Part shown: in pieces, positions 1,919 to 59,658 of the stretch | How the letters are laid out: the number at the start of each line of letters is the position of its first letter | Position numbering within the stretch: the stretch's first letter is position 1 | Assembly (NCBI GenBank): GCA_016215405.1 | Contig: JACRJQ010000002.1 | Location: 125,597-186,143 of the forward strand | Source of the DNA: Candidatus Tayloriibacteriota bacterium | GTDB lineage: Bacteria; Patescibacteriota; Minisyncoccia; Phycocordibacterales; UBA6065 | Reading direction: 5' to 3' | Length of the DNA: 60,547 nucleotides | Notes under the pieces: model-generated | What the model was told of the DNA's origin: nothing | Database searches by the model: none | What the model saw: the letters and a program-made list of their open reading frames with translations, nothing else | Position numbers and translations under genes: made by a program

Positions 1919-3151
1919 CTAGTAGTTCTTGAGCTGGTTTATCTTCTCGTGCTGCCTGATCTTTTCGTGAGCCTTCGCCTCGATCTGGCGGATTCGCTCT
2001 CGGGTGACGCCGAACTCCTTTCCCACCTCCTCGAGGGTATGGGTGATGCCGTCGTTGAGCCCGTGGCGCATCTCGAGGATCTTGCGTTCCTTAGGCGAAA
2101 GGTCGTCAAGGATGCCTTTAACCTGATCCGAGAGGATGCGTCGCGAGGACTCTTGGTCTGGCGAGAGTATCTTGTCGTCCGAAAGGAAGTCGCCGAGCGT
2201 GGATTTTCCGTCGTCGCCGTCGTCCCCCACCGGAGATTCGAGGGAGACCGTGTCCTGGTCGATCTTCTCGATCTGATAGACCTTGTCTACGTCGAGGCCC
2301 ATCTCGGTAGCTATCTCGTCAGGAAGCGGGTCTCGTCCGAGGTCCTGCGAGAGCCTGCGCACCACTTGCTTGTATTTCGCGATCGTCTCTACCATATGTA
2401 CCGGCACGCGGATGGTTCGAGACTGGTCTGCGAGCGCGCGGGTGATCGCCTGGCGGATCCACCACGTCGCGTACGTCGAGAACTTATAGCCTTTCGTCCA
2501 ATCGAACTTGTCGACCGCCTTGAAGAGGCCCAGATTCCCTTCTTGGATGAGGTCGAGCAGGGTGAGGTCGGCGGAGCGTCCTACGTATTTCTTCGCTATG
2601 GATACGACGAGCCTAAGGTTCGCCTTTGCGAGGAGACCCTTCGCCTCTTCGTCGCCTGCTTCGATGCGGCGGGCGAGCTCCTTCTCCATCGCCGCGGAGA
2701 CGAGAGGATACTGCCCGATCTCCTTGAGGTACATCTGGATGGAATCGTACGATGACTCGCTTCCCATCCTGCCGAAGCCGTATTTCTTGCCGCTCTCCTT
2801 TTCTGGAGGCTCGAGGTCGAGCATTCCGCCCGATTCGAGGACGTCTACGCCCGCGCCGGAAAGCTTCTGATACAGCTCGTCGAGGAACATGATATCGTCT
2901 TCGATCGTCGGGAATTCCTTGAGGATCTCATCATAGGTGACGAAGCCCCTCTCCTTTCCCTTAGAGACGAGCCTTTCCGCCTTCTTGGCCGCTTCGCGAG
3001 CCTTGTCCTTGGCTTTCTGGGATACCGGCTTTCCCTTGCTCGAAGCCTTCGTCGCCTTTTTAGACGGCTTTGGGGCCGTCTTGCGCGAAGCCTTCTTATT
3101 TTTCTGGTTCCCCGCCTTTGCGAGGACCTGTTTTGGCTGCTTTTTCGACAT
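1919..3151 (-). CDS. rpoD: primary sigma factor sigma-70 (RpoD/SigA)
   Basis: Region 1.1 (RGFVTYDEI), [56 protein letters not shown]. Confidence 0.98.
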
Positions 3152-3159
3152 GTATCCTA

Positions 3160-4887
3160 TTATAGCCTAGTTATTAACCTCCTTATCTCCTGCTTCCTCG
3201 TAGTGAATGCTTGTATGCTCTTCATGATGCCCTCGACGTCCTCTTTCCCCTTCTCGGCTTTATGGAGCGCCATGGTCGCGTCCTCTAGCCTTTTATTTAG
3301 ATATTCCTCTTCGAGCGTCAGAAGGAGCATCTTGTATTCCTTCTCGATATCCGAATCTCCGTAGGTCACTTCCGCTTCGAGCGTGAGCTCGGCTAGGTCG
3401 TCGGACGAGAGGGTCTCGAATTCCTTCATCCTCGCCTCGCCCACCACCCCTTGAAGCTCCCTCTTCCTGTCGGCCCCTCCTTTCATGTATCGATTCGAGT
3501 AGAGTATCCCTAGAGCTTTCCTTTCGATCGACTCGAGCCGATCGAGCCTCCTCGAAGGCGGCCCCTCGGCCTTACCGAACGAGGATTGCGCGCCGCCCGG
3601 CCTGTTCTTCTTTACGTATTCCTGGAGATCCTTCCATAGCGCGTCCTCGGAGAGCGCGAGCCTGTCCGCTATCTTCTTTATCGCTTGGAAGCGCGGCGTA
3701 TCGTCCGGGATCGCAGCGACATACGGGAAGAGATCCTCCTTGACGGTCTTCGCCACCGCGGCAGGAGACGCGTTCGAATCCTTTATAGCGTCCGCGAGGT
3801 ATTCGATGAAGTCTTTCTTAGATTCGAGGGCTTTCGTCCAGTCTTTCGGATTCGCTTTTATGATATCGGCAGGGTCCTTCCCTCCCTTGATATCTACGAT
3901 CTTCACGTTCATTCCGAGCGCTATCGCGGGAACGATCCTCTTCACAGCCTTCTGCCCCGCCGCATCGGAATCGAACGCGACCACGATATTATCAGAGAGC
4001 CTCGTGAGGAGGCCGAACGCGGAATCGGCGCCTCGGTCTTCGGTGAACGCGGTCCCCGATGCCGCGACGGTGTTCGTAAAGCCTGCCTGATGCGACATGA
4101 CGAGGTCCATTTGGCCTTCGACGAGAATCGAGTAGTCCCGTTTCCTGATATCCGACTTCGCCTTGTCGAGGCCGTAAAGCGTCTTCGACTTGCTGTACAG
4201 GGCGGTCTCGGGACTATTGAGGTATTTGGGCGATTTTCCGTCGTCTACGACGATGCGGCCGGTGAACGCGACCACGCGGCCAGAGGTGTCGGATATCGGG
4301 AACATGATCCGTCCGCGGAATACGTCGTAATAAGGGTCCCCTCCGGGCTTATCGGTCTTCTTTATGAGACCGACTGCTTCGACGTCTGCGTCTCTGTAGC
4401 CTTTCGAGGCGAGATAGGATCGGAGCTGTCGCCAATCGTTCGGCGCATACCCGACCCTGAAGCTCGAGAGAGTGCTTTCAGAGAGACCTCTCCCGAGGGC
4501 GTATGCCTTTGCGTGCTTCTCCTCCTCGATCTTCTGTTCGAAATATTCCGTCGCCTTCTCGAGTATCTCGTAGAGGAGCTCTTTCCTGTTATCGGTCTTC
4601 ACTACCCTGTCGAGGACGACTCCGGCCCTTTCGGCGAGCACCTTGAGGGCGCCCATGAAATCGAGGCCCTCGAACTTCTCGACGAAGGTGAATATGTCGC
4701 CCTTCGCGCCGCAACCGAAGCAGTAGAACGAGCCTCGCTCCGGAGACACGTAGAAAGACGGGGTCTTCTCGTTGTGGAACGGGCATCGCGCCTTATAGTT
4801 CGCTCCTGACTTATCGAGCTTTATATAGGAGGACACGACCGCCGCTACGTCGAGCCTATCCTTTATCTCTTGGACATGGGTGCTCAC
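3160..4887 (-). CDS. dnaG: DNA primase
   Basis: [15 protein letters not shown] zinc finger, [21 protein letters not shown] and FDSDAAG. Confidence 0.97.
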
Positions 4888-4961
4888 TGGGTTTGTTCCC
4901 TAATTACCTACAAGCTTACACCAAAGGCAAAACCTCCGCTTTCAAGCGAAGGCGATCGCCC

Positions 4962-8642
<3,681 letters not shown>

Positions 8643-12282: not shown

Positions 12283-13110
12283 TTAGAGCGAGAATTCCGA
12301 GCCCACGATCGGGAGACCCTTGAAGGTGTAGATGGTGTTCGACTCGTCGTTCTTCATATGGCCCGTGACCTCTTCGACCACGATATGGAACCTGCCGCGG
12401 TCAGGGAACGGTCCGTTAACCTTAAACGAGAGCTCGTCGGACGCCGCATGCGCGACAAGCTTTGTGGTTATGGAAGCGTTGAGGGAATTCGAATCGGATA
12501 CGAGGTTCTGTTTCGACGACACGCCTATCGTCAGGTCGCCAGATCTCATCTCCTCAGAGACGACCCTCCATGTGACGCTGTCCACATACCAGAGGCCGAG
12601 CGATGCTGCCTCGCCTTTGACAGCCTCGATCGCGAGCAATTCAGTTCCCTGCCTTATGTTCTTAGGTTGAGAGAAGTTAGATGGAAGGTATGGGTAGGTC
12701 GCCGAAAACGACGGTACTTCGACCTTCTTTTGGACGGTCGTCGTGGCAGCAGGCTTTGTGGCAGGAGCTGGAGGGGTCGCTGTCGCTGTTGTAGTCGCCG
12801 CAGCCTTTACGACGGGCTTTGCCTGGACAGGCATGGCGGTTACAGGAGGTTTGGCGGCCGCAGGTAAAGGCTTCGTCGACGGATCGTCGGACTTTACAGG
12901 CGTGGTTGTCGCCCCAGAGAGCGTCGGCGACGAAGTCGCGGTCGAGACAGGCTCTGCCGGAGGAGCGTTTCGTATCTCCTTTTGAGGCTTTCGGAACCAT
13001 GAGAGCGGATTCCACCAAGCCGCGTCAGCCGCCTGAGGCGCCGCGAACGCGGCGACGAGGGCGAAGCCGAACAAGGCCACGACGTGTTTTTTCGTATATT
13101 TTGTCATCAT
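12283..13110 (-). CDS. secreted hypothetical protein with Pro/Ala/Thr-rich linker and beta-rich C-terminal domain
   Basis: Signal peptide (KKHVVALFGFALVAAFAAPQAADA), low-complexity PAT segment, TATAAT 6 nt upstream of the ATG. Confidence 0.75.
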   Translation of the reverse strand: MMTKYTKKHVVALFGFALVAAFAAPQAADAAWWNPLSWFRKPQKEIRNAPPAEPVSTATSSPTLSGATTTPVKSDDPSTKPLPAAAKPPVTAMPVQAKPVVKAAATTTATATPPAPATKPAATTTVQKKVEVPSFSATYPYLPSNFSQPKNIRQGTELLAIEAVKGEAASLGLWYVDSVTWRVVSEEMRSGDLTIGVSSKQNLVSDSNSLNASITTKLVAHAASDELSFKVNGPFPDRGRFHIVVEEVTGHMKNDESNTIYTFKGLPIVGSEFSL

Positions 13111-13157
13111 CCTTTGATTATATCTCGAAAACGGAGAAAAGATGCTACGCTGTTCAC

Positions 13158-13814
13158 ATGTATAAGAAGGCGAGGCTTCACTTTAAAAAGGCTGATCCGA
13201 GACTGTATAAGGCATCCCTCGAATTCGAGATAGCCGATTTGAAGCTCTCTGACGACCTGTTCCGCGACATCGTCTGGACGATCGTCGGCCAGCAGCTCTC
13301 GGGCAAAGCCGCGGACACCATATTCGAAAGATTTCAGAAGCTCTTGCCCGGAGGCAGGGTCGTTCCGGAAGAGATCCTCGAGCTCTCGGATGAGGAGATG
13401 AGGAGCGCTGGCCTATCGGGCGCGAAAGCGAGGGCGATCAGAGACCTATCGGAAAAAACGGCCTCTGGAGAACTCGACCTCCCAGCGCTCGCCTCTCTCT
13501 CGGACCTAGAAGTCGCCGCCCAGCTCGTCAAAGTAAAGGGCATAGGCCCCTGGACCGCGGAGATGATCCTTATGTTCTCCCTCGGAAGGACCGACGTGTT
13601 CTCGCTCGGCGACCTCGTGCTCCGTAAAGAGATCATGAATCTGCACGGCTGGAAGAAGCTCCCCGGCGAAAAAAGGCTTCAGAGCGCCCTCGCCCGCTGG
13701 TCTCCGTACCGTACGTACGCCGCAAGGATACTCTGGAAGATAGCCGATTCGAGGAAGAAGCGAGCCGCTCCGCCAAAGCGCGCGAAAAGCCGAAAAAAGG
13801 CTCGAAAAGCATAA
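13158..13814 (+). CDS. DNA-3-methyladenine glycosylase (AlkA/HhH-GPD family)
   Basis: IVGQQLSGKAA, HhH motif VKGIGPWTAEM, FSLGDLVLR, WSPYRTYAA; true start MYKK at 13158. Confidence 0.92.
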   Translation: MYKKARLHFKKADPRLYKASLEFEIADLKLSDDLFRDIVWTIVGQQLSGKAADTIFERFQKLLPGGRVVPEEILELSDEEMRSAGLSGAKARAIRDLSEKTASGELDLPALASLSDLEVAAQLVKVKGIGPWTAEMILMFSLGRTDVFSLGDLVLRKEIMNLHGWKKLPGEKRLQSALARWSPYRTYAARILWKIADSRKKRAAPPKRAKSRKKARKA

Positions 13815-14211: not shown

Positions 14212-14805
14212 TTAATACGTGTCACCTCCGCTTATCTTTCGCCCTATCTCCTTCATCTGGGCGCGGGCCCTGTGCATCCGAGTCTTTATGGCCCCCTCCG
14301 TGACTCCCTCCGCCTCCGCTATCTCCTTATAATCCTTGCCGTCGATTACGTATAACCGCAATATCCGAGCGAAGGTTTCCGGAAGGCGCGAGAACATCGA
14401 TTCGAGATAGTCCCTATCGAGCTTCTGTTCCCTCTCCGCCCTATCGTCATGCGGCAACACCGCCTCCAGGTCCTCGTCGAGCGCCGAAAAGAAGAGCCTC
14501 TCCCTCTTCATCTTCTTGTACCACATGAAGCAGACGTTCATAAGGACCTTATACGCCCACGACGAGAACCGGGCCCCCTCTACGGGGCGAAATGACCTGC
14601 CGTAAAGATATATCTTCACGAACGTATCCTGGACGATATCCCTGGCCGCCTCGTCGTCGCGCACGATGGACCTCGCTTTGCGTATGAACGCCTCTTCGTA
14701 GCGCTCTACGATGAGCTCGAAGAGATACGGGTGCTTGAAAGACGCGGCAAGGACGTCCTCGTCCCTCTTTTCCCTGAATTCGGCCTTGTGCTCGTGCGGG
14801 TTCAC
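14212..14805 (-). CDS. ECF-type RNA polymerase sigma factor
   Basis: DIVQDTFVKIY, FSSWAYKVLMN (region 2); YKEIAEAEGVTEGAIKTRMHRAR (region 4). Confidence 0.93.
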   Translation of the reverse strand: MNPHEHKAEFREKRDEDVLAASFKHPYLFELIVERYEEAFIRKARSIVRDDEAARDIVQDTFVKIYLYGRSFRPVEGARFSSWAYKVLMNVCFMWYKKMKRERLFFSALDEDLEAVLPHDDRAEREQKLDRDYLESMFSRLPETFARILRLYVIDGKDYKEIAEAEGVTEGAIKTRMHRARAQMKEIGRKISGGDTY

Positions 14806-14831
14806 GCGGTAACTATAACTCGAAAGGGCCC

Positions 14832-16408: not shown

Positions 16409-16759
16409 TTAGGCCTTTGGAGCCTCAGGAGCCGGGGCCGCTGCAGGAGCCGCCGCTTCCGCCTTCTTGTCTCCTTCCTTCTTGATAGGCTTCTTCTTAG
16501 GAAGGGCGTTCACCTTCTTGCCTGGGATAACCTTCTTTTCGATGAGCCAGTTATGGACGGTGTCAGAGAGCTTTGCGCCGTGAGACATCCAATGCTTCAC
16601 GCGATCCGCCTTTATCTCCTTTACGTCGTTAACAGGATCATACGAGCCGAGCACCTCAAGGTACTTGCCTGATTTGGTAGAGTTCTTCGAATCCGTGAGG
16701 ACTACTCGGAACGTCGGTACATTTACGCGCCCTACGCGCTGAAGTCGAATCATTAACAT
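16409..16759 (-). CDS. rpsP: 30S ribosomal protein S16
   Basis: MLMIRLQRVG...FRVVLTDS...LEVLGSYDP...GAKLSDTV. Confidence 0.97.
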   Translation of the reverse strand: MLMIRLQRVGRVNVPTFRVVLTDSKNSTKSGKYLEVLGSYDPVNDVKEIKADRVKHWMSHGAKLSDTVHNWLIEKKVIPGKKVNALPKKKPIKKEGDKKAEAAAPAAAPAPEAPKA

Positions 16760-16826
16760 AGACACCGATACTAGCAGAAGTGATAAAAATCGTCAATTTT
16801 AAGCGTATCTGCTATAGTGAACCTCA

Positions 16827-18872
16827 ATGAAAAACAGACCTAAGAACGAGAACAACCCGCGCGAAAAGAGCGGGAGCAGGCCGTCGAAGCGAATAGCCCA
16901 TATCCAGGGGCACAAGGCTTCTGACGCCCACAAGAGCGCGGAAAAGCCCGCGCGCGGCAAGGCCGTCATAGGACAGCTGAGCGTGAACTCCAAAGGAGTC
17001 GGCTTCGTCGAGAACCCAGAGGATAAGAGCGCTGATTTCGAGATCCTTCCGGAGTCGCTCCATACAGCGCTCCATAAGGACGAAGTCGAGATACTCCCCC
17101 TCGGCAGGCAGTCGAGGTTTAACCGTCCGCTCGCGGAAGTGGTCCGCATCATAAAGCGCAGCAAGATGCGCTACGTCGGCGTGCTGGAGTCCGCCGGAAA
17201 GGGATTCGCCCTCGTACCTGACGACAAAAGGCTCTACAAGGACGTCTTCGTCTCCGACGACGCTTCGCAGGGAGCGAAAGCTGGTGACAAGGTATATGTA
17301 GAGATATACGAGTGGGACGAGAAGAAGGGCTATCCTGTCGGCCGCGTCCTCGAGGTGATAGGCCGCCATGGCGAGCACAATGCGGAGATGAGGGCTATCG
17401 TCCTCGAGCGCGGGCTCGCTTACGACTATCCTGTCGACGTCGTCCGCGAGGCCGAAGCTATCGAGAAGAACAAGGCGATCTCGGCAGAAGAGCGCGCGAA
17501 GCGCCGAGACTTCTCCGATGTCCCTACCTTTACGATCGACCCTATCGACGCGAAGGACTTCGACGACGCCATCTCCTTTAAAGAGCTCGGCGGCGGCCGG
17601 TACGAGATAGGCGTCCATATCGCCGACGTATCGCACTACGTGCGGGAGGGCACCGCCCTCGACCGAGAGGCGCGGGAGCGAGGATTCTCCGTCTACCTCG
17701 TCGACAGGACGATCCCCATGCTCCCCGAGGTGCTCTCAAACGACGTCTGCTCGCTCAATCCCCACGAAGAGAAGCTCACGTTCTCGTCGGTCTTCGTCAT
17801 GAACGACCGTGGAGACATCCTCGACCGATGGTTCGGAAAGACCATCATAAAATCCTGGAAAAGATTCACGTACGAGGGCGCTCAGGAGGTGCTCGAGGGA
17901 AAGTCCCAGGAATATAAGAAAGAGCTCCTTAAGCTCAACGAGATAGCGAAGAAGCTGCGGGCCAAGAAAGAGGAAGAAGGCGCCATAGACTTCGAGACCG
18001 ACGAGGTGAAATTCGAGCTAGATTCCACCGGCAAGCCTATCCGCGTCTTCAAGAAGACGAGAAAGGACGCTCACAAGCTCGTCGAGGAGTACATGCTCCT
18101 CTCGAACCGAGAGGTCGCGCATTATATGTGGAGGGCGAGCGAGAAGAAGCAAGGCGCTTTCCTCTACCGCATCCACGACGCTCCCGTCATGGAGAAGATC
18201 GACAACCTCACGGTCCTCGTAAAGGCGCTCGGCTACCATCTGCCCGTCTCGAAAAAGGGCATCGCGGTCAAGGATCTCAAGCATCTCTTCAGGCAGATAG
18301 AGGGTAAGACCGAAGAGGCGCTCATAAAGACTGCGGCCATCCGCTCTATGGCGAAGGCCGTCTATTCTACTCTCAACATCGGCCATTACGGCCTCGCGTT
18401 CGAGTACTATACCCACTTCACCTCCCCTATCCGCCGCTATGCCGACCTCATCGTCCACAGGCTCCTTTACCGAGAGCTCTCGGGAGGCAAGATAGCCGCG
18501 GGAGAGATGTCGAAATACCAAAAGATAGCCGACGACAACTCCGAGAAGGAGGTCCGGGCCGCAGAAGCGGAACGAGCTTCGATCAAATACAAACAGGTCG
18601 AATACATGAGCGATCGCGTGGGACAGGTATTCGAAGGCACCATCACCGGCGTCACAGAATGGGGCATCTATATCGAGGACAAGGAGACGAAGTGCGAGGG
18701 CATGGCGAAGCTCCGCGATATGACGGACGACCGTTATGTGTTCAACGAAAAGGCCTACGCAGTCATAGGCGAGAAGACGGGAAAGAGATACTCCCTCGGA
18801 GACTCCGTCCGCTTCAAGGTGATAGGCGCCGACCTCGAAAAGAGGACCCTCGACTACGCCGTAGCGAGATAA
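16827..18872 (+). CDS. rnr: ribonuclease R
   Basis: TIDPIDAKDFDDA, VHIADVSHYV, HYGLAFEYYTHFTSPIRRYADL, C-terminal S1 domain. Confidence 0.96.
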   Translation: MKNRPKNENNPREKSGSRPSKRIAHIQGHKASDAHKSAEKPARGKAVIGQLSVNSKGVGFVENPEDKSADFEILPESLHTALHKDEVEILPLGRQSRFNRPLAEVVRIIKRSKMRYVGVLESAGKGFALVPDDKRLYKDVFVSDDASQGAKAGDKVYVEIYEWDEKKGYPVGRVLEVIGRHGEHNAEMRAIVLERGLAYDYPVDVVREAEAIEKNKAISAEERAKRRDFSDVPTFTIDPIDAKDFDDAISFKELGGGRYEIGVHIADVSHYVREGTALDREARERGFSVYLVDRTIPMLPEVLSNDVCSLNPHEEKLTFSSVFVMNDRGDILDRWFGKTIIKSWKRFTYEGAQEVLEGKSQEYKKELLKLNEIAKKLRAKKEEEGAIDFETDEVKFELDSTGKPIRVFKKTRKDAHKLVEEYMLLSNREVAHYMWRASEKKQGAFLYRIHDAPVMEKIDNLTVLVKALGYHLPVSKKGIAVKDLKHLFRQIEGKTEEALIKTAAIRSMAKAVYSTLNIGHYGLAFEYYTHFTSPIRRYADLIVHRLLYRELSGGKIAAGEMSKYQKIADDNSEKEVRAAEAERASIKYKQVEYMSDRVGQVFEGTITGVTEWGIYIEDKETKCEGMAKLRDMTDDRYVFNEKAYAVIGEKTGKRYSLGDSVRFKVIGADLEKRTLDYAVAR

Positions 18873-22800: not shown

Positions 22801-23640
22801 CTATTCGAGGGCAACCCTCGAGCGATGAAGATCGCTCGCGTAGACGTCTCCGATCTCCGACGCGACGAGGGCTTTCGCGTAGACCCGCACATCCTCGATA
22901 TTTCCGCTGAAATAGTTGCCATCCGAACATGTGGAGCTTGGCTCCGCTCCGATACAGAGGGCATTATTCGATGAATACGTGATACTACCGCTCGGCGCCG
23001 CGTTAGCCGCGACTTCCTTACCGTCGAGGTAGAGCTTCATGACCTCGCCGTCATAGGTGACGAGCGCATGGTACCAGCGTCCCACGACGAGGGCGGACGC
23101 CGGATAGGATACCGAATGATATGAGCCGCTTATGTGGATAAGGCCGCACAGGGAATTCAGGGCGCAAGCGCTATTCTCGTTTATCGAGAGCTGGTAGCCG
23201 CCGGTCTGGGTCTTCGAGAGTATCTGCCTGCCTCCTGAGAGGCTCGCGGGCTTGAACCACGCGCTGTAGGTGATAGCCGAGGTCGGAGCGAGAGCCGCCG
23301 AATAAGGGACCTCGATATAATCGTTGGTGCCGTCGAAGAGCACCGACCCGCCGACGTTCCACGGGGTGTCTGCAGACCACGCCGGACTATTGACCAGCGT
23401 GCCGTTATTGCCGCTCCCCGACCTGTCGCGGGCGACAGTACCCGCTCCGTCGTCGAGATCCCACACGCCTACCGCATAATCACCGGCGACCCTGAACGAT
23501 TGCGCCGCGAACGACTTCGCGCCGCCGAGCCGGCCTTTATCCCGCGCGGAGTTGAGGGACGAAAGGACCACGCTCGAAAGGAGCGAGATTATGGATACGA
23601 CCACGAGCAATTCTATGAGGGTGAAACCTCCCTTCTTCAT
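22801..23640 (-). CDS. pilin-like protein with LamG/ConA-like domain, #2
   Basis: MKKGG|FTLIE; WDLDDG...DRSGSGNNGTL...ITYSAWFK...WYHALVTYDG...LYLDG...FSGNIEDVRVY. Confidence 0.92.
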   Translation of the reverse strand: MKKGGFTLIELLVVVSIISLLSSVVLSSLNSARDKGRLGGAKSFAAQSFRVAGDYAVGVWDLDDGAGTVARDRSGSGNNGTLVNSPAWSADTPWNVGGSVLFDGTNDYIEVPYSAALAPTSAITYSAWFKPASLSGGRQILSKTQTGGYQLSINENSACALNSLCGLIHISGSYHSVSYPASALVVGRWYHALVTYDGEVMKLYLDGKEVAANAAPSGSITYSSNNALCIGAEPSSTCSDGNYFSGNIEDVRVYAKALVASEIGDVYASDLHRSRVALE

Positions 23641-23660
23641 ATCTAATGAGTATATCAAAG

Positions 23661-25798: not shown

Positions 25799-25843
25799 AG
25801 GCCATGTACTATAGCAGAAGCCGCAAAAAAGGCAAATCGAGGC

Positions 25844-27767: not shown

Positions 27768-27804
27768 ATAGAAAGATTATAGCAAAGCGAACAAGGGCGG
27801 CCTT

Positions 27805-28335: not shown

Positions 28336-28371
28336 AGATGCGATTATAGCAAAACGAGCCTGAAAATAAGC

Positions 28372-41929: not shown

Positions 41930-42646
41930 TCAGAATTGATTTATGAGCCTGAGGTCTCCCGAATAGAGGTGCCTGATATCGTCTATGCCGTATCGCAAAA
42001 GAACGAAACGGTCTACGCCGCCGCCGAACGCGAAGCCTTTCCAGACCTTCGGATCGAGGCCTGCGGACTTTATGACCTCTGGGTGTACGATGCCCGCTCC
42101 TAGCATCTCGAGCCACCTGTCTTTCCACCATACGTCGACCTCGACGCCCGGCTCGACGAAGCCGAAATAGCTGGAGCGGAACCTGATCCTCGCGTCGGGC
42201 CCGAGAAATTCCCCAAAGAACCTCTCGAGGGTGCCCTTGAGCTCGGCCATCGACACCTCCTTGTTCACATAGAGGCCCTCGATCTGATAGAACTGCGCCT
42301 CGTGTGTCGCGTCGGTCGCCTCGTTCCTATACACCTTCCCTGGAACGATTATCTTTACAGGTTTCGGATCTGCCTTCATAGCCTCCATGAATCTCACCTG
42401 CACGGGAGAAGTGTGGGTGCGCAGGACCCTCTTTTCCTCGCCTGGCTTCGTCTTTATCCAGAACGTATCCTGCATATCGCGAGCGGGATGGTCGGCAGGG
42501 ATATTGAGCGCGTCGAAATTATAGAATTCCGTCTCGAGCTCAGGGCCTTGCGCTACAGAGAACCCCATCTTGTCGAATATCGCCGACATCTCACGGATGA
42601 CGGACGTTACGGGGTGAAGGTGGCCTCTTTTATTCGCTTCTGACAT
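41930..42646 (-). CDS. pheS: phenylalanyl-tRNA synthetase alpha subunit (catalytic core only)
   Basis: GHLHP, NFDALNIPADHPARDMQDTF, LRTHTSPVQ, FYQIEG, FGFVEP, GFAFGGGVDR. Confidence 0.97.
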   Translation of the reverse strand: MSEANKRGHLHPVTSVIREMSAIFDKMGFSVAQGPELETEFYNFDALNIPADHPARDMQDTFWIKTKPGEEKRVLRTHTSPVQVRFMEAMKADPKPVKIIVPGKVYRNEATDATHEAQFYQIEGLYVNKEVSMAELKGTLERFFGEFLGPDARIRFRSSYFGFVEPGVEVDVWWKDRWLEMLGAGIVHPEVIKSAGLDPKVWKGFAFGGGVDRFVLLRYGIDDIRHLYSGDLRLINQF

Positions 42647-42718
42647 TAGGCTTAAAATATAGCAAAAAAGGCCGGTTTTATAAAGAAAAGCCGCCGGACA
42701 GAGTCCGGCGGCTTTTCT

Positions 42719-43456
42719 TTATTTCTTTGAAAATCCCTCGAATGCCTTGAGGAGCTCCATCGGGAGCGTGAATACCACGGTATTCGACTGGTCGGACGAG
42801 ATGTCGTTCATCGCCTGGAGGGTTCGTAGATGGAGGGCTCCCGGCGCCTCGGAGAGCGTCCTCGCGGCCTTCGCCATGTTCTGCGATGCGGCGAGCTCGC
42901 CTTCGGAGGTGATGATGACCGCCCTCTTCTCGCGCTCCGCCTCTGCCTGCTTAGCGATAGTCCTCTCCATATCTGGAGGCAAGGACACGTCTTTAAGCTC
43001 GACATTAGAGACCTTGAGCCCCCAGGCGTTCGATTCGGTCGCGATGACCTCCCTGATGCGGTTCGCGATCGCCTCGCGGCCGGAAAGAAGGTCGTCGAGC
43101 GTCGTCTCTCCGACGATATTCCTCATCGTAGTCTGAGCATACTGAGATATCGCGTGCATGAAATCCTCGACTTCCAAGATAGACTTCTCGGCCGATTCGA
43201 CCTTGTAATAGAGGACCGCGTTCACCTTGACCGATATGTTGTCTCGGGTGATCGCGTTCTGATCCGGGACGTCGACCGCTTTCACGCGCATGTCCACCTT
43301 GCGGTACGACTGGAATACGGGGACGACGACCCTCCAGCCCGGCTCCATTATCTTGGTGAAGCGGCCCATGGTGAATTTAAGGCCTCGCTCGTATTGATTC
43401 ACCTGCCTAAGGCTTATGAGGACGAGAACGACCACGGCTATGATGATGTATTGCAT
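42719..43456 (-). CDS. SPFH/band 7 (stomatin-like) membrane protein
   Basis: N-terminal TM, VDVPDQNAITRDNISVKVNAV, AQTTMRNIVG, AKQAEAEREKRA. Confidence 0.93.
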   Translation of the reverse strand: MQYIIIAVVVLVLISLRQVNQYERGLKFTMGRFTKIMEPGWRVVVPVFQSYRKVDMRVKAVDVPDQNAITRDNISVKVNAVLYYKVESAEKSILEVEDFMHAISQYAQTTMRNIVGETTLDDLLSGREAIANRIREVIATESNAWGLKVSNVELKDVSLPPDMERTIAKQAEAEREKRAVIITSEGELAASQNMAKAARTLSEAPGALHLRTLQAMNDISSDQSNTVVFTLPMELLKAFEGFSKK

Positions 43457-46769: not shown

Positions 46770-47024
46770 CTACGCCTTCTTCTTCGCCTGGCGAGCCTTG
46801 AACTTCTCGACACGGCCTGCGGTGTCGATGACGGTCTCGTTGCCCGTATAGAACGGATGCGAAGCCGACGAGATCTCGATCTGATAGAGAGGGTATTCCT
46901 TTCCGTCCTCCCACTTGTCGGTCTCCTTGGTCGCGACGGTCGAATTTATGAGGAATCGAGCCTTCGACGAGTTGTCGCGGAAGATTACCAAGCGGTAGTT
47001 CTTTGGGTGAAGTTCCTTTTTCAT
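46770..47024 (-). CDS. rpmE2: 50S ribosomal protein L31 type B (zinc-free)
   Basis: MKKELHP...VIFRD...[12 protein letters not shown]...GRVEKF. Confidence 0.95.
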
Positions 47025-47063
47025 GAGATTGACACTATATCCGAAAGGGCTTAAAAATGCAAC

Positions 47064-47874: not shown

Positions 47875-49278
47875 TTACCTTCCCAAGATAGGGTCGATCA
47901 TTTCCTCTTGGACCTTCGTCACCCACTTCATGACGCTGGTTCCGTAGGTATTGCCCGCCGTAGACGACGCGCACTTCCTTCCGGAATAGTATTGGCAGGC
48001 CGCGTTCTTCTCGGCCGAATAGGTCTGAAGGCCCGCTCCGAGATCGCCGAGATAGTACGAAGCGGCCATTATGGCGTGCTCCGGATTCCAGGGATTGGTC
48101 TCTTCGACTGAGATGCCGAGACCCTTCGCTATCCTCTTCTGATAGAGCTGCCACGTCGAGGGTATGAACTGCGCAGGGCCCATCGCCCCTCCCCAGCCGA
48201 ACGGCTTGCCTCCGCTGTATGCCGTTATCCAGCAAGAGACGCGGGTGTTGGTCCAGTCGAAGCCGAGATTTCCTACGATGTCCATGAATACAGGGAGGTC
48301 TCTGGTCGGGTTCATGACGCGGATCCTCGCCGCTCCCGTCGAGGCGCTCACTCCCTCGCCCGTGGAGCGATCGCGGACGAAGCATTGGCCCACGTTCTTG
48401 CCGAAGCTCGAGTCGGAAGAATCGTAGCTCGACTCCTGCATGAGGATCCCCAGGACGAACGCCGGGCGGACGCCGGTGACCTTGCCGGCCTTCACCGCGT
48501 AGTCGTAGGCGTTGCCGAAAGGTATCCCTTCGCCATCCTGGAATTTGAAGAGGCGGGCCCTGATCTGAGCCACTTTCTGCTTTTGGTCCGTGAGGATCTT
48601 CTGCGCGACGTTATACTCGCTCGTCTTGAGGGCGAGTATGGCGTTCTTCTCGGTCTTCTTGCGCTCGATAAGCCGTTTCTCCGCTTCGATAGCCTGCTTC
48701 GCGTCGAATTCCCTGTCTTTGCGGTCTTCGAGCTCTTCCTTCTCTGATTGAACCTCGTCCTTCTGGCTCCTTACCTCGTCGAGGAGCGCGGTGAGCTCTT
48801 TGTTGAGGGAGACGTATTGGTCGGCTTGAGTGTAGAAATCCGAGAACGTGCCGCCGCTAAGCATTATCTCAGGGAGCGAGACGGAGTCCTTCACGTTCAC
48901 CTTCTGTATGACGCTGCGTATCGAGCCCGTATTCCTGTCTATCTTGCCTTCGAGAGCCGAGACCACCTTGGTCTTCGCCCCGATGTCGCTTGAGAGCCTA
49001 TTGATGATGGTGTTCTGGAGCTTTATCTTCTGCTCGGCGACCCGTATCTCGGCGTTTATCTTATCGATAGCCGCCTGCGCTTCGTCCTTCTCGCTCTTCT
49101 TCGCCTGGCTGTCGGCGACGGAGCGCGCATAGTCCTCGCATTGTCTTTTCGCCTCCTGGTCCGCCTGAGCCTGAGCGCTCGAACAGAAGGCGGCGATAGG
49201 GTCCGTCGCGGCGAAAGAGGGCGACGGGAAAAGCAGATACCCGAGGATGAGAGCGGAGATGATGGCGTTTCGATGCAT
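47875..49278 (-). CDS. secreted coiled-coil protein with C-terminal lytic transglycosylase (lysozyme-like) domain
   Basis: Signal peptide, long PcsB/CwlO-like coiled coil, GILMQES catalytic Glu, GAMGPAQFIPSTW; start at 49278 preferred because the ATG at 49290 overlaps the -10 box. Confidence 0.85.
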   Translation of the reverse strand: MHRNAIISALILGYLLFPSPSFAATDPIAAFCSSAQAQADQEAKRQCEDYARSVADSQAKKSEKDEAQAAIDKINAEIRVAEQKIKLQNTIINRLSSDIGAKTKVVSALEGKIDRNTGSIRSVIQKVNVKDSVSLPEIMLSGGTFSDFYTQADQYVSLNKELTALLDEVRSQKDEVQSEKEELEDRKDREFDAKQAIEAEKRLIERKKTEKNAILALKTSEYNVAQKILTDQKQKVAQIRARLFKFQDGEGIPFGNAYDYAVKAGKVTGVRPAFVLGILMQESSYDSSDSSFGKNVGQCFVRDRSTGEGVSASTGAARIRVMNPTRDLPVFMDIVGNLGFDWTNTRVSCWITAYSGGKPFGWGGAMGPAQFIPSTWQLYQKRIAKGLGISVEETNPWNPEHAIMAASYYLGDLGAGLQTYSAEKNAACQYYSGRKCASSTAGNTYGTSVMKWVTKVQEEMIDPILGR

Positions 49279-49324
49279 GGAGGCATCCATTATAGCAAAA
49301 ACCGGCCTTCGCCGGTTATTTGCC

Positions 49325-50365: not shown

Positions 50366-52003
50366 TCATGACCTCACGAGCCGCGACATCATATATTCCT
50401 TGGTGCCCCCCACCTTCTTTCCCGGATTGAAGATATTGGCGGGGTCGAATATATCCTTAGTCCTCCTAAAAAGCTCCACGATCTCCGGACCGTACATCTT
50501 TTCGAGATACGGGGTCCTCACGATGCCGTCATTGTGCTCTGCGGTTATCGATCCTTTATACGACACGACGAGGTCGTATATCTTGTCCGATACCTCGGCG
50601 ATGGCCCTGGCGTTCGAAGGGTCCGTCATATCCATAAGGGGGATGATATGGAAGTTCCCGTTTCCGGCATGGCCCGCGATGGTGTACCAGAGCTTGTAGT
50701 CGTCGAGTATCTTTCGCATCTTCGGCAGGAATTCCGGCATCGATTCGGGCCGCACGACTACGTCATCTACGAATGGCGCTGTACGCCTTCCGGTCACGTG
50801 CTTTCGAAGGAGGTTGAAGCTCTCGCGGCGGATGATCCAGTACTTCTCCGAGTCGGCCTCGCTCTTGGCGCGGCGCATCTTGAACCCGTATGGCCGGATC
50901 TTCTCTTCGAGCTTCCCTATCGTCGAATCTATCTCCGCCTCGTCGTCGCCGGAGAACTCGACGAGAAGGACGAGCTTCGGCATCCCGCCGGTAAGAGCCA
51001 TCCATGCCTCGGGCAAGAATCTCGCGGCGAGGCGCATGAAGTTCCACGGCTTCATGTTCTTCATCATGTCCGGCATGAACTTCACCGCGAGGTCCATGGT
51101 CGAGTCGTCGTAGGATTCGAGGCTCTCGGGACCGAACGGCAAGATATCGTTCACGATGTCGCCGAGCCTGTCGAGGGTAGGCATAAAGACGACGAAGAGC
51201 TTGGAGAGCTTCTTTACCGGGACAAGGCGCACCGTTATCTCGGTCACGATGCCGAACGTGCCCTGCGAGCCGACGATGAGCTTGCAGAGATCGAAGGTCT
51301 TGCCGTCCCAGACGTTCCAGAGATAGTAGCCGGCGGAATTCTTCGAGACCCTCGGCTTAGCCGCCTGTATCTTATCCTCGTTCTTTATGATGAGGTCGTA
51401 GAGCGAGCGATACATCTCCCCCTCGACGTTCCTTTGCGCCATCTTTCCCTCGAGCTCCGGCTTCGAGAGAGGCCTCACCGCGTACTCGTTGCCGTCGCGG
51501 AGCACGATCTTCAAGGAGCGCACGTAATTCTCCATCTTTCCGTATTTGAGCGTCTTTTCGCCTGCGCAGTTGTTCCCCACCATGCCGCCGAGCGCGTTAA
51601 GGTTCTTAGAAGCGGTATAGCACGGGAGTATAGCGCCCTTCTTGAGGGTCTCGACCTCGAAGTCGCGATAGAACGTCCCCGGCAAGACCGTCGCTTCGGT
51701 TTCGGAAAGAGAGAGTACGCCGTGCATATACCTCGTCGTGTCGAGGATTATGGACTCGCCTACGGCGGCTCCCGACATGTCCGTCCCTGCCGCCCGCGCG
51801 GTTATAGAGAGAGACGGATCGTTCTTCTTGTTCTCAGAGACCCATTTGACCACCGCCTTTATGTCCTGGGCGTCCTTCGGGAAGACCACGATCTTAGGCA
51901 TGACCTCGAAGAGGCTCGCGTCGCGGCTGAATTTCTTGAGGACTTCAGGGGAATCGTCCGTATCTCCGCCGATGAGCGCCTTTATCTCTTGTGCTAGGTT
52001 CAT
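50366..52003 (-). CDS. FAD-binding oxidoreductase (GlcD/Dld-type FAD-linked oxidase family)
   Basis: ARAAGTDMSG, GGMVGNNCAG, GSQGTFGIVTE, GHAGNGNFH, ITAEHNDG, FNPGK. Confidence 0.92.
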   Translation of the reverse strand: MNLAQEIKALIGGDTDDSPEVLKKFSRDASLFEVMPKIVVFPKDAQDIKAVVKWVSENKKNDPSLSITARAAGTDMSGAAVGESIILDTTRYMHGVLSLSETEATVLPGTFYRDFEVETLKKGAILPCYTASKNLNALGGMVGNNCAGEKTLKYGKMENYVRSLKIVLRDGNEYAVRPLSKPELEGKMAQRNVEGEMYRSLYDLIIKNEDKIQAAKPRVSKNSAGYYLWNVWDGKTFDLCKLIVGSQGTFGIVTEITVRLVPVKKLSKLFVVFMPTLDRLGDIVNDILPFGPESLESYDDSTMDLAVKFMPDMMKNMKPWNFMRLAARFLPEAWMALTGGMPKLVLLVEFSGDDEAEIDSTIGKLEEKIRPYGFKMRRAKSEADSEKYWIIRRESFNLLRKHVTGRRTAPFVDDVVVRPESMPEFLPKMRKILDDYKLWYTIAGHAGNGNFHIIPLMDMTDPSNARAIAEVSDKIYDLVVSYKGSITAEHNDGIVRTPYLEKMYGPEIVELFRRTKDIFDPANIFNPGKKVGGTKEYMMSRLVRS

Positions 52004-52173
52004 GCCCGCAATTATATCAGAGAGACATACGTAAACTATTCGACCCCGCTATTCGTAAGGAACAATAAGGGCGAGCTCCTGCGAGGGCGGCCCCGGCCTC
52101 TTCCGGGCATCTCGGCACGAACAGAGGATCCAAGGTACCGGCCGAGGCGAGCGTTACGACGATCATTACAACA

Positions 52174-54019: not shown

Positions 54020-54057
54020 GAGGATATGTTACCATTGTTTTTTGCTAAAATATCCCT

Positions 54058-55896: not shown

Positions 55897-56466
55897 TTAT
55901 CTGAGATTCTTCTGAAACGGCGACCAAAGGCGCCTGTCTATCACATAGAAGAGATAGAGTATGAGGATGCCGAAGACCCATCCCGCGAGGACTTGAGAAG
56001 GATAGTGGACCCCTAGATATATACGAGACAGCCCTACGAGAAGTATGAGAGCGATGCTTCCCCACATAAGGACGCGGCTCTTCGGATGCCTATGGGCCAC
56101 CCAGCCGAGGACGACCATAGACATGAGCGCGTGACCCGAAGGAAGGGCGAACCCGTCGTCGTTGTCATAGGCGATGACTGCCGAATCGATCACGTACGGC
56201 CTCTCTATATGGAAATAATATTTTGCGGACAGAAGGATCGCGAAGGAGACGGCCGCGATGACTAGGATCTCGAGCGCGACGCGCCACTTGTCGATAAGGA
56301 GGAGGGCGACGAAGAATGCAGCCACCATGATCGGATAAGAGCCCACGCCGTGAGAGAGGAACTTGGCGACCGATAGCCAGGAAGGGCCTATCGATTGCAC
56401 GAGGCTTAAAAGCTCGACGTCGAAGGCGTAAGAATATGAGAGGAATGCGTGGTAGACGGCTTGCAT
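55897..56466 (-). CDS. PAP2-family membrane phosphatase
   Basis: KYYFHIERP, PSGHA, SRIYLGVHYPSQV. Confidence 0.93.
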   Translation of the reverse strand: MQAVYHAFLSYSYAFDVELLSLVQSIGPSWLSVAKFLSHGVGSYPIMVAAFFVALLLIDKWRVALEILVIAAVSFAILLSAKYYFHIERPYVIDSAVIAYDNDDGFALPSGHALMSMVVLGWVAHRHPKSRVLMWGSIALILLVGLSRIYLGVHYPSQVLAGWVFGILILYLFYVIDRRLWSPFQKNLR

Positions 56467-57026
56467 TAGATCGGTTTTATAAAAGTCTTTTGGATATCCG
56501 CCCGGCGCAAGAGCTCGGCTTGGAGATTCGAAGCGAGCCCTTTATCTATCGCCTCTATGATGCATCCGGACTCGTTCCTCGATGTCGAAGGGTTGTCCGT
56601 CGCCGCAGTGGTCACGACGAGCTTCGAAACGCCGAGTATCCTCTGCTCGAGCGTCCTCTCTATGTCCACGTTGTGTATCTGCCGATACGGGATGGCGATC
56701 TCGACCGTCGTGAATACGCCGTGCCTCATCTTGAACGCGTCTTCCGCCAGGCAGAACGTCCTATTCTTGTGTATGAGCCGCGTCGATATTACGGCGAAAA
56801 GGCCTGTGAGGAAGAAAAGGGTCCAGCACCCGAGGCCGAAGAGGGCGACGGTCTTCCTCATCTCGACGGGAACGACCGAGAGATTGCGGGCGAAAGACAA
56901 AAGAACGGCGAGGACGAGGAATCCCATAGCGATAGAGAGCCTCTCGTAGAGAAAGAGCCAGAACGCCCTCTTTCCCATATTGAGATATACGCCCTGGGGA
57001 AGGTTGTAATACGCTCCTTCTGACAT
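56466..57026 (-). CDS. bacterial PH (bPH_2) domain membrane protein
   Basis: Two TM helices, then HGVFTT...IPYRQIHNVDIERTLEQRILGVSKL; ATG 57026 lies 7 nt downstream of TATACT. Confidence 0.85.
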   Translation of the reverse strand: MSEGAYYNLPQGVYLNMGKRAFWLFLYERLSIAMGFLVLAVLLSFARNLSVVPVEMRKTVALFGLGCWTLFFLTGLFAVISTRLIHKNRTFCLAEDAFKMRHGVFTTVEIAIPYRQIHNVDIERTLEQRILGVSKLVVTTAATDNPSTSRNESGCIIEAIDKGLASNLQAELLRRADIQKTFIKPI

Positions 57027-57074
57027 AGGAGGAAGTATACCCTGCGCCAAAGGCTTTATCCAAGCCGCTCGAAG

Positions 57075-57557
57075 CTACGGCGCCCCGACTTCTTCTACGT
57101 CCTGCCGGAGGATGATATCGCCCTCGCCGAACTCGAATTCGGCTTTGCGGATGAGCTTTCCCGAGATCACCTTGGGGAGCCAATAGACGTCATCCGGCCA
57201 CATCTCCTTATAGGGTATCTCTCCCGTCTTAAACCATCTGGGTGCCATCTCCTCGCTCTCGACCGGCTCTCCCTCCCATGAAAAGCAGAGATACGCGTGG
57301 ACGACCTGGTCCCATTCCGGCTTGTTCGCGAACGTGAAATGGAGCTCGGCGACCTTCGATATCGATTTAGGCCTCACCCCGATCTCCTCTTCGGTCTCGC
57401 GCAGGGCCGCCGCCTCTACCGTCTCGCCCTCGTTCGCTTTTCCTCCCGCCCCGTTCCATCTGCCCGCGCCGAATCCGCGCTTTTTCATAGCGAGGCATAT
57501 CTCGCCGACCTTCCCATCCTCGCTCTTCACTAGAAACAAAAGAGTCGAATTCCTCAT
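57075..57557 (-). CDS. Nudix hydrolase, MutT/MTH1-like 8-oxo-dGTP diphosphatase
   Basis: KKRGFGAGRWNGAGGK, intact Nudix box ETVEAAALRETEEEIGV, EMWPDD. Confidence 0.92.
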   Translation of the reverse strand: MRNSTLLFLVKSEDGKVGEICLAMKKRGFGAGRWNGAGGKANEGETVEAAALRETEEEIGVRPKSISKVAELHFTFANKPEWDQVVHAYLCFSWEGEPVESEEMAPRWFKTGEIPYKEMWPDDVYWLPKVISGKLIRKAEFEFGEGDIILRQDVEEVGAP

Positions 57558-57612
57558 AGAGAGATTATAGCAAAAAGCCCAGGCGAGGCCCGGGCCTTGG
57601 CGAAGGACTTCC

Positions 57613-58137
57613 CTATCGAGAGAGCGCCTTGAAAGCGAATTTCTCTCCTTCCGGCCCCCTGATGGTGAGGACGTCTCCTTCGACGTAGAACGACGCTCCT
57701 GCGCTAAGCATGGATCCGAAGCTCGCTTCCATGGACATGAGGCCCGCGGGAGCGCCGCAGAACATCTTCGTGGACGCGAGGTCTGACCTTATGACGCCGT
57801 CCAACAGGACGAACGTTCCTGACATTTGATTGCAGAACTTGGCGCTTAGGGACGCTCCGCTAAACGAGAGCGTGTAATCCTCTCCTTCTGCCATAGGAGA
57901 GTTCTTATATGAAGCGAGCTTGAACGTCACGCCGTCTATCTCTACCGGCGGGACATACGGTCCCCAGGTCTCGACGGACACGAGGTCGACCTCCTTTATA
58001 GCCTCGTCTACGGGACGCTCTCCCTTAGAAGCCGGTTTCCCTGAACTCGAAGACATAAGGACGATAAGGAGGATGACGACGACTGCCGCCGCCGCGTAAA
58101 TTATGTTTCTTTCGGTAAAAATGTCTTTAGGGTTCAT
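57613..58137 (-). CDS. META-domain membrane-anchored protein
   Basis: N-terminal TM; FCNQMSG...LASTKMFC (paired Cys)...LTI. Confidence 0.8.
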   Translation of the reverse strand: MNPKDIFTERNIIYAAAAVVVILLIVLMSSSSGKPASKGERPVDEAIKEVDLVSVETWGPYVPPVEIDGVTFKLASYKNSPMAEGEDYTLSFSGASLSAKFCNQMSGTFVLLDGVIRSDLASTKMFCGAPAGLMSMEASFGSMLSAGASFYVEGDVLTIRGPEGEKFAFKALSR

Positions 58138-58186
58138 GCGCGTATGCGAAATTTCGTAATACGGACATTATACAAACATCGAAGCG

Positions 58187-58804: not shown

Positions 58805-58811
58805 GGCGGGA

Positions 58812-58997
58812 TTAGTCTCGAATCCAGCGCGCCGCCGCGATCAACGCGAGGATGACGCCCACGACGACGAACCATGTAGCGTAAGGAAGGATAGCCTCCG
58901 ACCAATAAGAGCCGGCAGCAGCGCCTATCGCGAGAACCGAGAGCTTTATAAGGCCCATATCCCCCCAGCCCATCTCTTTGCTTTTGAATATTCTCAT
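58812..58997 (-). CDS. small two-TM hypothetical protein (61 aa)
   Basis: Hydrophobic helices; TATAAT 6 nt upstream of the ATG. Confidence 0.7.
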   Translation of the reverse strand: MRIFKSKEMGWGDMGLIKLSVLAIGAAAGSYWSEAILPYATWFVVVGVILALIAAARWIRD

Positions 58998-59019
58998 ACG
59001 GCTATTATAGCCTGTCGAT

Positions 59020-59184
59020 GGAGGCGGAGAGAGTTTCGGTCCCTACAGGACCAGTACCCCGATTGGCGCGAGTACGCGACTCAATCGGGCTTCGAATCTC
59101 TCACGCAGGCGTACCACGCCTGCTCGCCTCCGCAAATCAAAATCGCCTTTCGGCGATTGATTTGCGGAGGCGGAGAGATTCGAA
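59020..59184. repeat. inverted and direct copies of the tRNA-Ser 3' end
   Basis: 59091-59102 and 59125-59138 are exact reverse complements of 59173-59184 and 59159-59172; 59020-59032 GGAGGCGGAGAGA repeats 59166-59178. Confidence 0.8.
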
Positions 59185-59251
59185 CTCTCGATACCCTTGC
59201 GGATATACGACCTTTCCAGGGTCGCGCACTAGACCACTATGCGACGCCTCC
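59165..59251 (-). tRNA. tRNA-Ser(GGA)
   Basis: GGAGGCG acceptor stem, CGACC-CTGGAAA-GGTCG anticodon arm, long variable arm, GTTCGAATC T loop, G discriminator; CCA not encoded. Confidence 0.96.
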
Positions 59252-59346
59252 GTGAGACTTAATTTATACTCGATTATGCGATTTTCTCCAAATGCTTTTC
59301 CCAGCGCGCGAGTAACTTTCTCCCTGGTTCGGGTATTATATGCAGC

Positions 59347-59658
59347 ATGACCAAAAAACCCATCTATAACGCCCTGCTCGCCGCGGGGTACATATCGCTC
59401 ATCGTCTTGGGCGGAAACCTCGTAGCCTTGATCGACATACCGACCGAGGATAATCTGTTCGCTCCGATGGGAATGCTCGCCCTTCTCGTCCTCTCAGCCG
59501 CAACGATGGCGTATCTATTCTTCTATCAGCCGGTCATGCTCCTTATCGAAGGCAAGAAAGAAGAGGCGGCGAAGCTCCTCCTGAAGACCATCAGCGCGTT
59601 CGCGGTCATCACCGCCATCTTCCTCGCCCTCGCGCTCTTCGTATTCCCGTTCGTCTAG
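59347..59658 (+). CDS. three-TM hypothetical membrane protein
   Basis: Three hydrophobic segments; TATTAT 7 nt upstream of the ATG; hairpin downstream. Confidence 0.75.
   Translation: MTKKPIYNALLAAGYISLIVLGGNLVALIDIPTEDNLFAPMGMLALLVLSAATMAYLFFYQPVMLLIEGKKEEAAKLLLKTISAFAVITAIFLALALFVFPFV

Follow-up and report, generated by a model that had tools for sequence, protein, structure and literature searches.

Start-adjacent extended -10 promoters and predicted leaderless transcripts in a Parcubacteria genome lacking the Shine-Dalgarno system

The window analyzed here, a stretch of 60,547 nucleotides on contig C6 (C6:125597-186143), belongs to a bacterium of the candidate phyla radiation (CPR), class Paceibacteria/Parcubacteria. 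About 20 of its about 58 genes carry a TAnnnT hexamer of the -10 box type 6-9 nt before the start codon, whereas about 1 would be expected from the 1.8% rate at internal in-frame ATGs. Throughout the genome, this hexamer is part of an extended -10 promoter motif located at a fixed distance from the real start codons, and the genome has neither Shine-Dalgarno (SD) sites before its genes nor an anti-SD sequence in its 16S rRNA. From these observations, we infer where transcription would start and how the ribosome would select its start codons. In our estimate, with a probability of roughly 0.8, the boxes are extended -10 sigma-70 promoters that abut the real starts and would give leaderless or near-leaderless transcripts in an SD-free bacterium.

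Results

The genome (836 kb in 8 contigs, 56% GC, rated 100% complete) was annotated with a self-written 3-periodic Markov model followed by greedy non-overlap selection, which gave 722 genes. Spacers count the nucleotides between the final T of the hexamer and the start codon, and internal in-frame and out-of-frame ATGs were used as controls for the first starts. TAnnnT was found at spacer 6 before 16.0% of the first starts compared with 0.4% of the internal in-frame and 0.7% of the out-of-frame ATGs; a preliminary description of the window had set such a genome-wide positional enrichment over background as a test, and the enrichment was found. The peak was one nucleotide wide, with spacers 4, 5, and 8 at 3%, near the background of the upstream regions, and smaller peaks were observed at spacers 7 (6.5%), 9 (6.4%), and 12 (4%) over a background of 1-3%. 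When the TGn extension was included (TGnTAnnnT), spacer 6 was occupied before 6.5% of the first starts and 0.03% of the internal ATGs.

The same pattern was obtained without gene calls. The genome contains 578 TGnTAnnnT sites, which were followed by an ATG at spacers 6, 7, 8, and 9 in 56, 33, 23, and 16 cases, respectively, compared with about 7 per position elsewhere. An open reading frame (ORF) of at least 60 codons was opened by 111 of the 128 ATGs at spacers 6-9 and by 52 of the 56 at spacer 6. The control pattern TGnGCnnnC was flat before ATG over the whole genome and showed no spacer peak. Without the extension, TAnnnT is a permissive criterion, occurring at 13,159 genomic sites; therefore, any single weak instance could be due to chance, but the ensemble could not.

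A position weight matrix (PWM) of 12 columns comprising TGn and the hexamer, used with a threshold of >6 bits, matched at spacers 5-9 before approximately 30% of the genes and 36% of the operon heads, whereas the internal controls showed 1.4-2% and the other 5-nt bins of the same upstream regions, out to 44 nt, showed 1.5-7%. Among these matches (approximately 210-245 cases), spacer 6 accounted for 98-114, spacer 7 for 51-56, spacer 8 for 26-30, spacer 9 for 28-33, and spacer 5 for 7-11, and ATG made up 90% of the starts with an adjacent match. The strict consensus TGnTA[TC]A[AC]T occurred at 98 sites, of which 37 were start-adjacent and 30 were intergenic, 10-150 nt upstream of a gene, with the rest elsewhere. 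Leaderless-type promoters are the largest class, representing roughly 55-65% of the recognizable promoters. A mixture estimate of the leaderless fraction with coding-region controls (58-79%) was discarded because the upstream regions are more AT-rich than the coding-region null, and the local-bin control was used instead.

To identify the motif, 115 spacer-6 sites selected only for TAnnnT were aligned. The logo read TGnTAtaaT, with T at -15 in 58% and G at -14 in 62% of the sites (background, 22% and 28%), and this TG had not been a condition of the selection. Only a faint TTG was present in the -35 region. These features are those of an extended -10 sigma-70 promoter, which has TG one base upstream and a dispensable -35 element. 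The motif was also found within 80 nt upstream of approximately 20 of the 46 tRNA genes; since these genes are not translated, it is a transcription signal and not a translation signal. With regard to gene organization, the motif preceded 36% of the divergently oriented genes and 31-39% of the genes with a same-strand gap of >10 nt but only 9% of those overlapping or located <=10 nt from the previous same-strand gene. A generic -35/-10 scanner returned 13 sites, with 6.8 expected; most of the promoters described here escaped it for want of -35 boxes. The RpoD protein contains all of the sigma-70 regions 1.1-4 in the Pfam search and carries the RVPVHMVET motif; we take its motifs, including this one, to be the -10 and extended -10 recognition segments (regions 2.4 and 3.0) of Escherichia coli sigma-70. 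In most of the closest relatives, rpoD itself has a -10 box 6-9 nt before its ATG, and in a few the box lies at 15-18 nt.

A separate observation concerns the ends of the tRNA precursors. In 11 of the 46 tRNA genes, the best extended -10 match was located 7-11 nt before the mature 5' end, as at C4:175437 (tRNA-Arg), C8:17558-17632 (tRNA-Arg), and C5:170146 (tRNA-Gly), although some of the weaker matches may be chance. Promoters at this distance would give precursors with leaders of 0-4 nt. The RNase P RNA is nevertheless present (C8:8751-9067).

The anti-SD sequence was sought at the 3' end of the single full-length 16S rRNA gene (C5:45218-46721), an inspection that the preliminary description had suggested. 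Helix 45 is intact and is followed by GGATTATTTCAAGT, so that the molecule ends in GGAUUAUUUCAAGU rather than GGAUCACCUCCUUA. At the same position, the E. coli 16S rRNA reads GGATCACCTCCTTA. In agreement with the prediction, the end (...GCTGCTCGTGGATTATTTCAAGT) contains no CCUCC and hence no CCUCCU. The genes gave a matching result. Upstream of the 722 genes, GGAG, GAGG, and AGGA each occurred in at most 1% of cases per position, G was depleted from -13 to -1, and the upstream regions were generally A/T-enriched. An SD 4-mer at -17 to -4 was found for 8.5% of the genes compared with 16% inside genes, and was thus under-represented, whereas the same measure gave 70% and 3%, respectively, for 70 annotated E. 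coli genes used as a control. Among the ribosomal proteins, uL1 (PF00687) had no match in this genome, rated 100% complete, whereas 14 of 14 control genomes matched.

Several further components and sites were noted in this context. For bS21, the search gave only a weak 22-bit match (an 84-aa ORF, C8:53074-53220), and the genome encodes a 375-aa bS1-like protein that contains three S1 domains (C8:57569-58567). Two genes outside the window (C4:32936-33688 and C6:24543-25595) share an upstream SD-like sequence, CAGGAGAGACCC; SD-like 5-mers of this kind were not enriched genome-wide (25 genes compared with 48 in the internal control).

The genes without an adjacent promoter fell into two groups. 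There were 205 non-leaderless genes located within 40 nt of, or overlapping, the preceding same-strand gene, an arrangement that is compatible with coupling or reinitiation. The other non-leaderless genes had G-poor leaders, in which A/C-only hexamers occurred at -20 to -1 in 22% compared with 8% further upstream and 5% inside ORFs. The A/C-only tracts before these starts (AACCA, ACCAC, AACAC, and TAACC) could be a signal for unstructured leaders or a CA-type enhancer.

The start codons indicated by the motif were compared with Pfam profile registers. Position 1 of the L31 profile aligned with residue 1, position 6 of L32 with residue 6, and position 10 of NUDIX with residue 10. For the four pilins, the N_methyl registers were 1-27 to residues 1-27 (the gene at 27243-27767), 4-27 to 4-27, and 5-27 to 5-27. 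These registers are homology evidence, independent of the motif, that the start codons are the real ones. Furthermore, the motif-chosen pilin starts produced canonical short prepilin leaders (MKKGGFTLIELLVV and similar); in the pilin gene at 22801-23640, the motif-chosen start gives the leader MKKGGFTLIELLVV, and the longest ORF is 25 aa longer. The earlier claim that the motif corrects several starts of the ORF track was thus borne out by both the prepilin leaders and the matching registers. In the gene at 47875-49290 on the minus strand, the ATG of the longest ORF was observed to lie inside the -10 box; its real start is likely the ATG at 49278, 10 nt past the box, which would open a signal peptide. 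In genomes of this kind, start prediction that relies on SD sites will go wrong and the -10 box is a better guide, as the pilin leader peptides and ribosomal-protein N-termini of the window show directly.

Within the window, all 19 instances named in the preliminary description were present at the spacings given there, including the less obvious ones before rpmF (spacer 9), the alkA-like HhH-GPD gene (spacer 6), and the ECF sigma factor gene (GTG start, spacer 6). One instance was added, the pheS-like gene at 41930-42646 (minus strand, spacer 9). Thirteen of these 20 boxes carry TGn, for which chance would give about 1/16, consistent with the earlier remark that the extension is frequent. Pfam confirmed the gene identities in the window, namely sigma-70, HhH-GPD, ECF sigma, S16, RNase R, L32, and L31, and likewise the FAD oxidase, class II aldolase, PfkB, bPH_2, NUDIX, and the four N_methyl pilins; the pheS-like gene also has Pfam support.

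The boxes are described here by position, on the minus strand unless marked as plus. The rpoD gene (1919-3151) has TATAAT at 3159-3164, 7 nt before its ATG, and the TAA stop codon of the upstream gene at 3160-4887 falls inside this box. The product of that upstream gene, a 575-aa protein presumed to be DnaG from its N-terminal sequence and the position of the gene beside rpoD, has its closest matches at 63-76% identity, mostly titled Parcubacteria, Paceibacterota, or Patescibacteria; several are entered as "uncultured Candidatus Saccharibacteria" or simply as "bacterium," and the more distant matches include Taylorbacteria and Zambryskibacteria. A gene for 275 aa (12283-13110) is preceded by TATAAT at 13117-13122 (6 nt before ATG; PWM score, 12.6 bits), and the HhH-GPD gene (13158-13814) by TGc-TACGCT, with the hexamer at 13146-13151 on the plus strand, 6 nt before ATG. 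The ECF sigma factor gene (14212-14805) has TATAGT at 14812-14817, 6 nt before its GTG. The rpsP gene (16409-16759) and the rnr gene for RNase R (16827-18872) have divergent promoters, TGc-TAGTAT with the hexamer at 16768-16773 and TGc-TATAGT at 16813-16818 (plus), each 8 nt before the ATG.

Among the pilin genes, those at 22801-23640 (TGa-TATACT, 23649-23654) and 27243-27767 (TGc-TATAAT, 27776-27781) have spacer 8, that at 27805-28335 (TGc-TATAAT, 28343-28348) has spacer 7, and that at 29679-30506 (TGg-CATAAT, 30513-30518) has spacer 6. Spacer 9 was found for the L32 gene rpmF (25574-25798; TGc-TATAGT, 25808-25813), the pheS-like gene (TGc-TATATT, 42656-42661), and the L31 gene rpmE2 (46770-47024; TATAGT, 47034-47039). 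The remaining boxes precede the genes for the FAD-linked oxidase (50366-52003; TGa-TATAAT, 52011-52016, 7 nt), the bPH_2 protein (56466-57026; TATACT, 57034-57039, 7 nt), the NUDIX (MutT-like) protein (57075-57557; TGc-TATAAT, 57564-57569, 6 nt), a 61-aa protein (58812-58997; TATAAT, 59004-59009, 6 nt), and, on the plus strand, a 103-aa protein (59347-59658; TATTAT, 59334-59339, 7 nt), all with ATG starts. The divergent genes fba (ATG at 54019) and pfkB (ATG at 54058) are separated by a gap of 38 bp (54020-54057), which contains two complete back-to-back extended -10 promoters, TGg-TAACAT (54026-54031) for fba and TGc-TAAAAT (54046-54051, plus) for pfkB, each 6 nt from its ATG. The gap has no space for separate -35 elements or leaders. 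The would-be -35 region of each promoter was seen to overlap the -10 box or start codon of the other.

Two side observations relate to individual promoters of the window. On the minus strand, the T-tails of terminator-like hairpins run straight into the TGn of the next promoter at 49276-49317 and 57564-57591 (GGCCGGTTTTTGCTATAAT; GGGCTTTTTGCTATAAT), and the terminator and promoter therefore share bases; at the NUDIX promoter, the terminator-like hairpin lies at 57575-57591 with its T-tail abutting TGn. The PheS-like protein has only 238 aa, with the Pfam domain tRNA-synt_2d covering residues 4-238, and the N-terminal part that bacterial PheS alpha chains typically have therefore seems to be absent.

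Relatives in the class were also compared. The 16S rRNA end ATCACCTCCTTTCT is kept in 9 of the 26 class-mates with a readable 16S end and absent in 16, including both genomes of the same order, or in 17 genomes with the present one. The pattern TGnTAnnnT-N6-ATG occurred 56 times compared with 6 for its reversed control in this genome and 66 times compared with 8 in one same-order genome, and an excess was observed in most class-mates; both same-order genomes combine the start-adjacent pattern with the absence of the anti-SD. Among the 26 class-mates, no clear link was found between the leaderless signature and anti-SD loss, with enrichments of 1.4-14x in anti-SD-less and 1-5.7x in anti-SD-bearing genomes. 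Two anti-SD-bearing class-mates with intact CCUCC (G007 and G043; approximately 200 kb and 160 kb) had the spacer-6 TAnnnT peak in 12-16% of the ORFs with 200 aa or more, and SD motifs were not enriched upstream of their long ORFs; for SD motifs, E. coli under the same longest-ORF rule gave 47-56% compared with 3%. Because the peak occurs without SD usage in these two genomes, SD independence may be older than anti-SD loss, a lead that the two sequences suggest. The ratio of AGGAG-N4-9-ATG to the reversed pattern was approximately 2 in almost every class-mate, with or without an anti-SD, and approximately 1 in the order of this genome, the reversed pattern being a poor control for strand composition.

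Discussion

The sequence features described above can be combined into a model of gene expression. The holoenzyme with the housekeeping sigma-70 factor, RpoD, would use extended -10 promoters of the form TGnTAtaaT with little or no -35 element. In the textbook geometry, the -10 hexamer occupies positions -12 to -7. Since the promoter abuts the ATG in this geometry, the transcripts would be leaderless or nearly so: with spacer 6, and probably also with spacer 7, the first base of the transcript would be the A of the ATG, and with spacers 8-9 transcription would begin 1-3 nt before it. The preliminary description had proposed that transcripts begin at or within about 3 nt of the start codon; in support of this interpretation, every sequence-level test run agreed with extended -10 sigma-70 promoters that abut real start codons. 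Since the 16S rRNA has no CCUCC and the genes have no SD motifs, a 5'-terminal AUG would be the main gene-specific signal for translation initiation in about one-third of the genes, and by analogy with other bacteria, these leaderless mRNAs would most likely be read by 70S/IF2-type initiation. The remaining genes would depend on coupling or reinitiation where they are packed 0-40 nt behind, or overlap, a preceding gene, or on G-poor, A/C-rich leaders.

Several results weigh against a fully leaderless interpretation. Of the strict-consensus promoters with an assignable gene, approximately 45% are located 10-150 nt upstream, indicating that leadered mRNAs also exist, and promoters upstream of 42719-43456 and 57613-58137 are examples in the window. 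Spacers 8-9, which make up approximately one-quarter of the cases, are beyond the usual distance from -10 box to start if the A of the ATG is the first transcribed base; in the spacer-9 class, a second pyrimidine/purine (Y/R) pair at -4/-3 suggests 3-nt leaders. A pyrimidine at -1 was found in 86-87% of the leaderless-type genes; this is weak evidence for a Y-1/R+1 start because it was also found in 72% of the other genes. In addition, the genome-wide percentages are approximate because the gene caller is crude (79% coding). The earlier suggestion that leaderless initiation may be dominant therefore stands for about 30% of the genes, about 36% of the operon heads, and about 55-65% of the recognizable promoters, and does not extend to the remaining genes, which are leadered or translationally coupled.

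Some of these points could also be explained by real promoters followed by ordinary short leaders, the true start codon lying further downstream or the transcription start being shifted. Spacers of 8-10 do occur, as in the gene at 47875-49290 with its likely ATG at 49278 (spacer 10), and the Y/R pair at -4/-3 of the spacer-9 class would agree with such leaders. However, spacer 6 is a sharp mode (98-114 of approximately 210-245 cases), the ATG at spacer 6 opened a long ORF in 52 of 56 cases, and the motif-chosen ATGs coincide with the N-termini of their families. Leaders of 0-3 nt are, moreover, reportedly treated as leaderless in mycobacterial work. We therefore regard short leaders as an unlikely general explanation.

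The motif might alternatively act as a replacement SD sequence, with the altered 16S tail (3'-...CUUUAUUAGG-5') pairing with AUAAU-like sequences on leadered mRNAs. The tail does hold AUUAU, which is complementary to the AUAAU part of TATAAT, and the motif is spaced from the start as a classical SD would be. However, the mean energies of duplexes between the real tail and positions -22 to -2 (-3.2 to -3.9 kcal/mol) did not improve on those obtained with five shuffled tails (-3.5 to -4.8 kcal/mol) in any gene class, and nothing in the tail is complementary to the TG at -15/-14, which had not been selected for. The motif also occurs upstream of tRNA genes and is depleted before operon-internal genes, where a ribosome-binding site would be most needed, and the spacer-6 TAnnnT peak recurs in class-mates whose tails differ widely from this one and in some cases contain an intact CCUCC. 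On these grounds, the altered-SD explanation was rejected as very improbable. Still harder to sustain is an artifact of AT-rich upstream composition, upstream stop codons, or miscalled starts: the upstream regions are indeed A/T-enriched and G-poor in general, and the stop codon of an upstream gene lies within some of the boxes, as before rpoD, but the peak is a single nucleotide wide (3% at spacers 4, 5, and 8), is present without any gene calls, and stands at 30% compared with 1.5-7% in the other 5-nt bins, and the TG extension is unrelated to AT-richness. The artifact explanation is refuted by these positional controls. Promoters abutting the start codons thus remain the preferred explanation.

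A broader and more tentative proposal concerns the whole class. The promoter would double as the only gene-specific signal for translation initiation, and start-adjacent promoters and SD independence may have been ancestral to the Paceibacteria, with the anti-SD later lost neutrally in approximately half of them; we consider this scenario possible but rather doubtful. In this genome, 43 leaderless-type genes are located <=40 nt behind a same-strand gene, and in 23 of the 43 the promoter overlaps the 3' end of the upstream ORF. Under the ancestral scenario, apparent operons would therefore be transcribed in part gene by gene as leaderless messages.

Start-adjacent -10 boxes are known from other bacteria. 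In group C of the GeneMarkS-2 study, which includes Actinobacteria and Deinococcus-Thermus, 25-50% of the operons have a Pribnow box that lies 6-8 nt before the start (2018, PMC6028130), and further cases have been described (Zheng et al. 2011, PMC3160421; Zhong et al. 2025, PMC12340547). The present genome resembles group C in having TAnnnT at a fixed distance of 6-8 nt in 25-50% of operons, a strong preference for ATG, and a weak -35. The peak here is at spacer 6 (16%), followed by 7 (6.5%) and 9 (6.4%), and 36% of the operon heads exceed 6 bits, with 37 of the 67 assignable strict-consensus promoters being start-adjacent. In contrast to group C, where SD sites serve the other genes and the anti-SD of the 16S rRNA is retained, the anti-SD is gone here and SD motifs are depleted (8.5% of genes compared with 16% inside genes); the prominent TGn extension is a further difference. 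The GeneMarkS-2 paper does not mention Parcubacteria (PMC6028130). The Bacteroidetes (GeneMarkS-2 group B) are similar in that their genes lack SD motifs and their upstream regions are A-rich and G-poor, but they keep the anti-SD and leadered mRNAs and have a non-SD motif before every gene, including operon-internal ones, whereas the localized motif here is a promoter and is rare in front of operon-internal genes.

The loss of the anti-SD is likewise known within the Parcubacteria, where a subgroup has 16S rRNA without CCUCCU and lacks uL1 (Tsurumaki, Saito, Tomita, Kanai 2022, RNA 28:1041, PMC9297842). The present bacterium shares with it the anti-SD-less 16S rRNA, the loss of uL1, and a tiny CPR-type genome. 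That study covers only the rRNA and the loss of uL1 and contains neither "leaderless" nor "promoter" (PMC9297842), so the start-adjacent promoters are added here. No paper linking "leaderless" with Parcubacteria was found, only incidental mentions of Patescibacteria or CPR, in a search with poor coverage of subscription journals. Start-adjacent -10 boxes and the anti-SD loss of Parcubacteria are thus each already known, and in this genome the leaderless pattern is found together with the complete lack of an SD system. This combination offers a coherent account of start-codon choice in a large uncultured radiation whose ribosome has no anti-SD and, should transcriptomes or cultures become available, makes the Paceibacteria a natural test case for SD-free bacterial translation.

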